Notes under the pieces: model-generated
Told to the model about the DNA's origin: nothing
The model's input: the letters and a program-made list of their open reading frames with translations, nothing else
The model's database searches: none
Shown: positions 57,720-59,957 of the stretch, one piece after another
Numbering within the stretch: position 1 is the stretch's first letter
How the letters are laid out: each line of letters opens with the position of its first letter
Virus record (IMG/VR): IMGVR_UViG_2863371048_000001
Length of the DNA stretch: 64,000 nucleotides
Source: a virus
Taxonomy: Duplodnaviria > Caudoviricetes
Strand: one strand, 5' to 3'
Translations under genes and position numbers: made by a program

Positions 57720-59957
57720 TCAGTTCAGGGCGGGCCGCTCGGGCATCAGGTAGCGCTGGGCGTCGTCGTCGTAACCCAGCACGCCCGCGTCTCGCAGCTT
57801 CCGCAGCCGCTTCTGAGCCCACTGCCGGGTCATGTCCGTTGACGACCACAGCGGGTTCAGATCGCCGGTGCTGAAGTCGCGCCGGCCGCCGTCCCACCAG
57901 TCCTGGAGCAGCTGCACCAGAGCTGCCATGCGCGCCTCCGGTGTCATCGGTTCCGCAGGGGTGAACGCCCACGGCGGGTCGCCCGGGTCGAGGTCGGGGA
58001 TCTCGTCGTCGATGCCGCCCTGAACGTCGGGGTCGGGGTCGGGGTCGGTGAGGTACTCGGACACCACGTCCTCCTCGGAGTCGTCGTCGGCCTGAGCACC
58101 GTCGCGGATCTTCTCGATGAGCTCCTCCAGCTCATCGACCGGAGTGAGCACCGCAGGCGCCTGGTTCTCCCGGGGCGGCCCGACCGCGTCGAGCCGCTGG
58201 AGCTCGGCAATCAGAGCAGTCGCCTGGGCGAACGGAATGCGCAGCTTGCGCTGCAGCATCGACGCCGACGCGAACTGTGTGTGGACCACCAGCTCGGCGG
58301 CCTGGGCGAGGAGTTCGACCTCGACCGGGGCGACGGGCTCAGCTTGGGCAGGCTTGGCCGGTGCGGTGGTGGCCAGCCGGGAGATGGCCGCGGTGCCCGG
58401 GTCGACCTCCTTGGCCGCGGCGGGATAGGCGGCGGCGTGAGCCCGCATCTCGGCGTTCGCCCGCTCGTCGTCGAACTTCTCGCCGCTGATGCCCCACGCG
58501 TAGGTGCGCAGCGGCATGGCGACGCGCTCCTCGGGGATGCTGGGCGCGTCCAGGTAGGCCATGCCGGGCTGGGCGTTCGTCCACAGCTCGGGGCGGGCGT
58601 TGGCGTCCTGCTGCCGCTCCGACAGGCCGAAGCTGGCGTCGCTGGAGGAGTCGACGCCGAAGCACATCTTCGCGAGCTGGCCGCGGGCGAGCGTCGGCAT
58701 CTGCGTGTAGTCGCTGCGCTGGAGGCTCATGACCACCGTGCCGCCCGCCGAGCGGATCGCCTTCAGGAGGCTGAGGAACTGCTCCTGCTCGGCGTCGGTG
58801 AGTGCGTCGTAGACGTCGGGGAACTCCTCGATCCACAGCACCCAGTAGGTGAGCCCACATCCCTTCTTCCACTTCTGCAGGCCCTTCGCAGACAGCTGGT
58901 CGGTGCGCTCCTTGACCTTGGACTGGATCTCGCCGAGCAGCGCCTTGGCGCCGGCCTTGGTGGTCTCCAGACGGTGCAGCGCCTCCTCCAGCGGGCCGAG
59001 GGTCTGCTTGCCCTTGGTGATGTCGACGGCGAACACCGCGACGTCGGCCCGGGTGACGATCTCGCCGAGGTAGTTCCACGCCCCACCGATGGACTTACCG
59101 GCGCCGGTCATCCCCATGAACTGCACGTGGTGGCCGACGATGATGTGCATGGCCTCGTCGAGGTCCTGCCACAGGCCGACGCGGAGCGCATCCGCGATCG
59201 AGCCTCCCGGCCGGGATGGACCCGGCCAGGCGATCGGCTTCTTCATCACCCGCGGGTCGGAGATGGTGACCTTTGCCTTGCTGGCGTCGTCGGGGTCGAT
59301 GGCCGTGGTGATCGACCCGGGTGGCAGGCCGACACCGGATTCGACGTAGGCGACCTTCTTCTGCAGGTCGTCGGCGGTCTGCTTGCCCTGCTCCAGCTGT
59401 ACGTCACCCTCGACCTTGTGGGCGGTCGCCTTCGTCGTCTTGGCCTCGATTGCGGGCATGCCAGCCCGTTCGGCGCCCTGGCCGAACAGGAAGCTGAGCG
59501 GGTCGCCGATCGCGCCCTGCACGTCGATCTGCTTCGTCCGGATGACGGTGCGGATGTTGAACGACAGGGCCATGGTGACCCCGCCGATCAGGATCAGCCG
59601 CCCCGTCACCATGGAGGTGGGGCCGTTGATTGTGGCCGCGCACACCCACAAGCCGCCGGCCAGGGTCGTCAGCGTCGAGTGCGCGCGGCCGGTGAGGCTA
59701 CGGGCGTGCGACTGGTGCCAGGTGAGGCCGGTCAGACCTATGACGCACGCGGTGATGAGCACGGTTGTCCAGGCCACCACCTGCGGGTCGTCGGAACGCA
59801 GCGACACGTGGAACACCCAGCCGAGGCCGAACAGGAACGCGCCGACCATCCACGGCGGGAAGTACAGCAGCGCCTTCGAGACCTCGCGGGTAGCGACCTG
59901 CTCCCACGAACCAGCCGACGTGTCCGGCGCGACGGGCGCCAACTGCCTGGTTGCCAT
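57720..59957 (-). CDS. traB: TraB (FtsK/SpoIIIE-family) conjugative DNA translocase
   Basis: N-terminal TMs, GMTGAGKS, LWIEE, SLQR, RPELW...PG..YL, C-terminal wHTH. Confidence 0.9.
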   Translation of the reverse strand: MATRQLAPVAPDTSAGSWEQVATREVSKALLYFPPWMVGAFLFGLGWVFHVSLRSDDPQVVAWTTVLITACVIGLTGLTWHQSHARSLTGRAHSTLTTLAGGLWVCAATINGPTSMVTGRLILIGGVTMALSFNIRTVIRTKQIDVQGAIGDPLSFLFGQGAERAGMPAIEAKTTKATAHKVEGDVQLEQGKQTADDLQKKVAYVESGVGLPPGSITTAIDPDDASKAKVTISDPRVMKKPIAWPGPSRPGGSIADALRVGLWQDLDEAMHIIVGHHVQFMGMTGAGKSIGGAWNYLGEIVTRADVAVFAVDITKGKQTLGPLEEALHRLETTKAGAKALLGEIQSKVKERTDQLSAKGLQKWKKGCGLTYWVLWIEEFPDVYDALTDAEQEQFLSLLKAIRSAGGTVVMSLQRSDYTQMPTLARGQLAKMCFGVDSSSDASFGLSERQQDANARPELWTNAQPGMAYLDAPSIPEERVAMPLRTYAWGISGEKFDDERANAEMRAHAAAYPAAAKEVDPGTAAISRLATTAPAKPAQAEPVAPVEVELLAQAAELVVHTQFASASMLQRKLRIPFAQATALIAELQRLDAVGPPRENQAPAVLTPVDELEELIEKIRDGAQADDDSEEDVVSEYLTDPDPDPDVQGGIDDEIPDLDPGDPPWAFTPAEPMTPEARMAALVQLLQDWWDGGRRDFSTGDLNPLWSSTDMTRQWAQKRLRKLRDAGVLGYDDDAQRYLMPERPALN

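Follow-up and report, generated by a model that had tools for sequence, protein, structure and literature searches.

A recurrent FtsK gamma domain inserted between the motor and the terminal winged helix of a TraB-family translocase

Overview

We analysed the product of traB, a gene at positions 57720–59957 (minus strand) of a 64,000-nt stretch of Caudoviricetes DNA (IMG/VR record IMGVR_UViG_2863371048_000001; hereafter, the window). The protein carries an FtsK gamma domain in the linker that joins its motor to its C-terminal tail. This domain recurs in a minority of related TraB proteins, has been exchanged between them by recombination and is kept by purifying selection. In the copy described here, the residues equivalent to those with which Escherichia coli FtsK reads FtsK orienting polar sequences (KOPS) are replaced. 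Judging from these sequence comparisons, the gamma domain is most likely (probability of about 0.6) an accessory DNA-contact or regulatory module of TraB and not a reader of KOPS.

The TraB protein and its inserted gamma domain

The gene was translated as a single open reading frame (ORF) of 745 aa without internal stops. The NCBIfam plasmid_TraB profile (NF041214) matched residues 28–737 with its positions 5–631 of 639 (E-value 4e-116), at a score of 389 bits, short of the equivalog cut-off (800). Because this alignment is nearly complete, the protein is TraB-like throughout, though it exceeds the model by about 80 residues. Named TraB proteins were found among its homologues. Two N-terminal hydrophobic segments (residues 58–80 and 115–139) form the putative membrane anchor, behind which lies an FtsK-like P-loop motor with the Walker A motif GMTGAGKS (residues 282–289) and the motif WIEEF (residues 375–379). 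By sequence, the ORF belongs to the TraB family of double-stranded DNA (dsDNA) conjugative translocases, and conjugative transfer is its probable role by likeness. A Pfam scan of the protein yielded FtsK_gamma as the single significant domain and no match to FtsK_4TM, FtsK_alpha or FtsK_SpoIIIE, so the protein does not qualify as a chromosomal FtsK. The chromosomal FtsK of the host is a separate ORF of 860 aa (C2:141.6 kb). The same genome contains a second TraB-family gene (G000:C1:2984360-2985859), which is gamma-less and whose product is 36% identical to the one described here.

The inserted gamma winged helix spans residues 545–612 (58122–58325, minus strand). Pfam FtsK_gamma (PF09397) matched residues 548–604 (58146–58316) with 48.7 bits (E-value 6.4e-13; gathering cut-off 30.6). 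The match falls inside the interval 58107–58316 for which the initial annotation had described a chromosomal-type FtsK gamma domain in addition to TraB's own C-terminal winged helix. This description was confirmed by Pfam, AlphaFold2 and the plasmid_TraB alignment, and the strings quoted in its support were located in the protein: LLAQAAELVV at residues 549–558, QRKLR at 569–573, FSTGDL at 695–700 and RKLRDAG at 719–725. A six-frame search of the 9-Mb genome detected just two gamma domains, the TraB copy (53.4 bits) and that of the chromosomal FtsK (81.2 bits).

The AlphaFold2 model of residues 538–745 comprised two confident domains with a low-confidence acidic linker between them, and the predicted local distance difference test (pLDDT) values of the gamma domain were 94–98. 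The top PDB matches of the modelled gamma domain in Foldseek were the FtsK gamma structures 2j5o, 2j5p, 2ve8 and 2ve9, with target-normalised template modelling (TM) scores of 0.74–0.91 and a root-mean-square deviation of about 1 Å for most. A Pfam match and a structure prediction had been suggested in the initial annotation as checks, and both agree with a domain that folds like the solved FtsK gamma domains. The acidic linker expected after the gamma domain was found at residues 613–672 (57942–58121, minus strand), with 20 Asp/Glu versus 2 Lys/Arg. In the alignment of homologues, gamma appears as a clean insert of 75–90 aa that separates the motor from the acidic linker, the family being otherwise collinear.

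Distribution, exchange and selection of the gamma domain

Of the 120 nearest homologues, which are all Streptosporangiaceae-type, 20 carried the insert. Gamma-bearing proteins in this set measured 728–768 aa and the remainder 650–690 aa. A wider survey covered 150 representatives, the best-matching ones, of clusters built at 50% identity from 1.8 billion proteins. Ten of these representatives carried the insert, reaching 35–39% identity, and the distant ones included Actinomadura and Actinoallomurus proteins named "DNA translocase FtsK" by NCBI. In the genomes of the GTDB family (n = 121), there were 18 TraB loci, six with gamma. Taken together, these counts identify the architecture as a recurrent minority variant and not a singleton. 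The initial annotation had named a common occurrence of the architecture among TraB proteins as a point against its reading, and the counts bear this out in part.

In the motor-region tree, the presence of gamma required at least 13 changes, at least 10 of which were forced by well-supported branches, and several sister pairs differed solely by the insert. The chromosomal gammas of the family were nearly invariant, and the TraB gammas formed several long-branched lineages. The gammas of seven proteins, this TraB included, made up a supported clade; on the motor, the same seven proteins were rejected as a clade (delta lnL 286; approximately unbiased (AU) test, p = 1e-5). This conflict between gamma and motor indicates that the C-terminal module has been exchanged by recombination. 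The gamma-domain tree offers too few columns for counting independent captures.

We estimated selection by the pairwise ratio of nonsynonymous to synonymous substitution rates (dN/dS). The ratio was 0.18–0.35 for gamma in six of seven pairs, 0.34–0.44 for the motor and 0.5–1.15 for the acidic linker in most pairs. The low values for gamma indicate that the domain is kept by purifying selection.

The terminal winged helix and the clt repeats

The terminal domain (residues 673–737; 57747–57941, minus strand) is common to 114 of the 120 nearest homologues, whether gamma-bearing or not. When modelled alone, it adopted an H-H-H-beta-beta arrangement with pLDDT values of 83–93. Its Foldseek matches were weak (E-values of 0.05–0.2), and nearly all were winged-helix DNA-binding domains (BirA, IclR, CapW, BrxR, the AraR DNA-binding domain and the cullin WHB domain). 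The second winged-helix-like segment of the initial annotation is thereby supported at the level of its predicted fold.

An array of 8-bp repeats, the cis-acting transfer locus (clt), begins 4 nt past the traB stop codon (57540–57715, minus strand). Its nine copies in 176 bp are six of GTTGCACC, one of them inverted, and three of GTGGCACC. The genome contains 119 occurrences of GTTGCACC versus about 135 expected, and clt is the sole cluster of this word. As reported for TraB proteins, it is the C-terminus that recognises the direct 8-bp repeats of clt (PMC4447253). The layout of clt was identical in the 11 loci compared, with or without gamma. Repeats of the GTTGCACC type track the terminal-helix lineage of this TraB (the window, P0002, P0009 and P0027), and those of the GTGGCACC type track other terminal helices, both in gamma-bearing (P0041, P0018 and P0121) and gamma-less proteins (P0012, P0034 and P0086). 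P0006 is accompanied by CTGGCACC repeats; its gamma shares 76% identity with that of this TraB, and its tail just 60%. As the type of repeat co-varies with the terminal helix and not with gamma, targeting appears to follow the tail, and the terminal winged helix is the probable reader of the clt repeats. The gamma domain was ruled out as the clt reader by the same co-variation and by the layout and words shared between loci with and without gamma.

In GTTGCACC-type clt arrays, the GTGGCACC variant was found at the same relative position in four elements (window 57540–57715, L051, L039 and L040), namely, as the first direct copy after the inverted one. This variant may be left over from the ancestral repeat, or it may represent another type of site.

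Replacement of the KOPS-reading residues

KOPS reading by the gamma domain of E. coli FtsK needs the recognition-helix residues N1296, R1300, E1303 and E1306, and the engineered alleles N1296A/R1300A/E1303A and R1300A/E1303A/E1306A are KOPS-blind with XerCD activation retained (PMC2533119, PMC2680272). We mapped these positions via a HMMER alignment to the Pseudomonas aeruginosa gamma domain plus a joint alignment. The equivalents in helix 3 of the TraB gamma (PFAQATALIAELQ; 58197–58235, minus strand) are Ala, Ala, Ala and Gln, and the Arg of the wing is replaced by Pro. In the chromosomal FtsK of the family, the same five positions are A, R, D, E and R in 39 of 39 sampled proteins. The equivalents of R1289 and R1292 are kept. 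Compared to the gamma domain of the host FtsK, 20 of 25 residues are identical in helices 1–2 and 10 of 31 in helix 3 plus the wing, and the net charge is +1 versus +3. Recent capture from the host FtsK was ruled out by this divergence of helix 3 and the wing, together with an identity of about 51% to the host gamma.

The A/A/A/Q pattern of the TraB gamma resembles that of an engineered KOPS-blind mutant. Given the replaced reading residues and the Pro in the wing, reading of the host KOPS equivalent by this copy is unlikely. The claim in the initial annotation that the domain would read host KOPS-like motifs is therefore at odds with the residues found at the reading positions.

The 71-kb insertion and its phage context

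The TraB module occupies one end of a 71-kb insertion (window −5005 to 66034; G000:C2:222531-293570), which is missing whole from two genomes of the same genus, G009 and G097. In G009, the flanks of the block join within one gene, the interrupted parts of which lie at L073:719-1045 (5′ part) and L003:12031-12651 (3′ part). Inside the block, the left junction is followed after 42 bp by the start of a gene for a large serine recombinase (486 aa; L073:1074-2534). The block contains a siphovirus prophage (terminase, portal, capsid and tape measure) and, further, a murA-bla-murB cassette, a toxin-antitoxin pair and then the TraB module, which ends at a gene for a GntR-family regulator. The block is either a single composite phage-plus-conjugation element or a nested insertion. 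No third copy resembling an attachment (att) site was found between the prophage and the TraB module, although the att-like core is very short. An actinomycete integrative and conjugative element (AICE) split from the prophage by housekeeping genes was ruled out because the genomes of the same genus miss the entire 71-kb block.

Phage genes were also found near traB in genomes of two other genera. In G120 (L075, L057; G120:C9:563000-593788), genes for a terminase, an adaptor, a tape measure, a phrog_5313 protein and an endolysin are followed by a gamma-bearing traB. In G005 (L074; G005:C42), a terminase gene lies 1 kb downstream of a gamma-less traB. The syntenic module of P0002 and the element of P0006 are plain, at about 12 kb each, with no phage genes within 6–9 kb. 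A family-9 terminase was located near traB at two of six gamma-bearing loci and at one of 12 gamma-less loci. The association of phage genes with TraB modules is thus recurrent, yet without specificity for gamma. We dropped a link between gamma and phage-sized composites, as these counts are too few and the counter-examples are clear. The earlier suggestion that the architecture favours the transfer of phage-sized DNA stands as to the setting, the TraB module being part of a 71-kb insertion with a prophage, and fails as to the domain: since gamma occurs in plain 12-kb AICEs and a gamma-less traB lies beside a terminase, gamma is not tied to large cargo. At the locus of P0018 (L062), we observed an endolysin homologue and a collagen-like gene close to traB.

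Neighbouring genes

A traA-like gene lies immediately upstream of traB (59957–60343, minus strand; 5′ end approximate). Its plasmid_TraA score of 42.8 bits is below the cut-off, and a Pfam TraA-like match was present in the loci of all relatives. After traB, an Xer-like tyrosine recombinase is encoded at 56471–57643 (minus strand), with matches to Phage_int_SAM_1 and Phage_integrase and a score of 139 bits, below the cut-off, for the XerC model. Its longest ORF measures 390 aa and starts inside clt (57540–57643); the homologue in L051 was called at 325 aa. As the called start overlaps clt, the true start is probably downstream of the repeats. A 9-6-9 dif-like site behind the recombinase gene (window 56441–56464) had no counterpart at ≤4 mismatches in L051, the closest syntenic element.

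Interpretation of the gamma domain

We propose that TraB would act as a conjugative dsDNA pump in which an FtsK-like motor is anchored in the membrane and a terminal winged helix recognises the 8-bp repeats of the neighbouring clt, with the targeting of the element staying with this terminal helix. The gamma domain in the linker between motor and tail would be an optional accessory module; it derives from FtsK gamma, has passed among the traB genes of Streptosporangiaceae and relatives through recombination and is retained by selection. In the lineage described here, the domain retains its fold, helices 1–2 and, where helix 2 ends, the R-K-x-R stretch, which in FtsK contacts DNA and XerD, and it has lost every residue that confers sequence specificity on FtsK gamma. 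With the fold kept and the specificity residues lost, its most likely role is that of an auxiliary DNA contact, either non-specific or newly specific, or of a regulator that would aid the assembly of TraB on DNA or its retention there.

Several points weigh against this interpretation. The gammas of the lineages P0014/P0031, P0011 and L037 keep Arg/Asp/Glu and may still recognise a KOPS-like word. The mapping of the KOPS positions derives from gamma-proteobacterial FtsK and the host is actinobacterial, and the replaced residues could have given the domain a new specificity instead of none. As for selection, each pairwise dN/dS value of gamma derives from about 68 codons, and in one pair the ratio was 0.62.

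A rather unlikely alternative is that gamma serves as an activator that switches on the element's own Xer-type recombinase or the host XerCD, so that DNA pumping would be tied to excision, to integration or to the resolution of multimers. In FtsK, gamma contacts XerD with a stretch that runs from the end of helix 2 through the loop into the start of helix 3, with R1289 being critical, and the 9-aa peptide RQFRIGYNR stimulates dif recombination, though far less strongly than does gamma as a whole (PMC5052618). The counterpart in the TraB gamma, RKLRIPFAQ, belongs to the best-conserved part of the TraB gammas, with Q-R-K-L-R invariant in 20 of 20 gamma-bearing homologues. In line with such a role, XerCD-dif recombination is fully supported by R1300A and by E1303A, two single mutants defective in KOPS recognition, and is still supported by the triple KOPS-blind allele (PMC2680272). 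An Xer-like recombinase follows traB in the window, in P0002 and in P0121. However, such a recombinase adjoins traB in just three of the 10 gamma-bearing loci examined, by which an obligatory link is ruled out, and at the other loci there is either a classical Int/Xis module or none within 6–10 kb. Furthermore, the loop reads IPFAQ in the TraB gamma versus VGFAK in FtsK, and the dif-like site is not conserved in the closest syntenic relative. We likewise regard as improbable the dual-specificity translocase put forward in the initial annotation, in which gamma would read host KOPS-like polar motifs, with the chromosome or very long DNA as additional loading substrates of TraB. Such a translocase would be in keeping with the nearly chromosomal helices 1–2, the purifying selection on gamma, the location of the TraB module within the 71-kb prophage composite and the Arg/Asp/Glu triad retained by certain other TraB gammas. 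Against it stand the A/A/A/Q/P combination, which mimics the engineered KOPS-blind alleles (PMC2533119, PMC2680272), and the low identity of helix 3 and the wing to those of the host FtsK. Gamma-bearing TraBs in ordinary 12-kb AICEs and the gamma-less TraB adjoining a phage terminase also speak against it. In addition, chromosome mobilisation is already explained by scattered clt-like words that are read by the normal TraB tail (PMC3429521), and the genome holds 119 copies of GTTGCACC.

That gamma rides along as a neutral passenger, having been captured as a fragment and heading for decay, is highly improbable. The absence of gamma from most relatives, the sister genes that differ by its presence alone and the loss of its DNA-reading residues would fit such a passenger, but its dN/dS is equal to or below that of the motor, the AlphaFold2 model is very confident over gamma, and more than 30 different proteins, with backbone identities as low as 35%, keep its frame open. 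Its repeated spread by recombination also argues for more than a decaying fragment. It is also unlikely that gamma is a mobile add-on with an FtsK-like second function, such as activation of Xer on the arrival of the pump, or polarity or processivity on very long substrates. If true, the add-on would couple transfer to resolution or integration, or would serve substrates such as the 71-kb prophage-plus-TraB composite. An auxiliary DNA contact or regulator of TraB remains our preferred reading of the gamma domain.

TraB is held to descend from FtsK, its tail being a gamma-like reader. What we describe here is a recognisable FtsK gamma added anew to a TraB that already possessed a reader of its own, and then selected and swapped between genes. 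In the literature on AICEs and TraB that we searched, no mention of a gamma-bearing TraB was found. The sister genes with and without gamma are natural matched pairs for roles of gamma beyond KOPS, including loading, motor control and the activation of recombinases. The findings also correct database names, as these TraB-family proteins bear the NCBI label "DNA translocase FtsK". In practice they carry modest weight: the architecture recurs, the proteins have already been deposited, and the role of gamma is one that we infer.

Comparison with known systems

The system resembles the TraB/Tra proteins of Streptomyces plasmids and AICEs of the pSVH1, pSG5 and pSAM2 type in having an FtsK-like ATPase with a membrane anchor and a putative terminal DNA-recognition domain, an adjoining clt built of direct 8-bp repeats, and a traA-like gene nearby, and in lacking a relaxase (PMC4447253, PMC3429521). 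It is 28–35% identical to the TraBs of Streptomyces plasmids and, unlike them, has an extra FtsK gamma of about 70 aa and an acidic linker between motor and tail. With the gamma domains of chromosomal FtsK (E. coli and P. aeruginosa; 2J5P, 2VE8 and 2VE9), the inserted domain shares the Pfam family, the fold, helices 1–2 and R-K-x-R. It differs from them in being internal and not C-terminal and in the replacement of the KOPS-reading positions and the wing Arg. TraB gammas also evolve much faster than the near-invariant chromosomal ones.

We detected a gamma domain in 65 plasmid records of PLSDB, and the proteins described here are those that were inspected, a subset of these records. The FtsK paralogues of plasmids pVMKU (Micromonospora maris), pSROS01 (Streptosporangium roseum) and pAGRA3207_1 (Actinomadura graeca), which bear the annotation "DNA translocase FtsK", are likewise gamma-bearing translocases on mobile elements. 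Unlike this TraB, these three plasmids encode true FtsK alpha, beta and gamma, with gamma at the very C-terminus, and two of the three were typed with a MOBP relaxase. Just gamma or the motor core is common to these paralogues and this TraB. A second winged helix beside gamma is present in the proteins of A. graeca pAGRA3207_1 (L063:1008-3731) and of a Streptomyces platensis plasmid (L065:1116-3725). In both, the extra winged helix directly precedes a C-terminal gamma, so the order is reversed compared to this TraB. A terminase-family gene lies 2 kb from the S. platensis translocase gene.

Further gamma-bearing ORFs were observed in the genomes surveyed. One ORF of 142 aa (L041/L016; G093:C43:171558-171737) comprises barely more than a near-chromosomal FtsK gamma (87 bits) and is present besides the genome's own FtsK. 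Two ORFs of 905 and 797 aa (L034, G096:C29 and L035, G064:C126, respectively) have gamma near the C-terminus and no BLAST similarity to this TraB beyond gamma; they are extra FtsK-like translocases. Among the INPHARED phages, gamma-only matches with 44–49% identity were found in the "FtsK-like DNA translocase" genes of Gordonia phages (H71–H83; MagicMan, Schnabeltier, Bowser and others).

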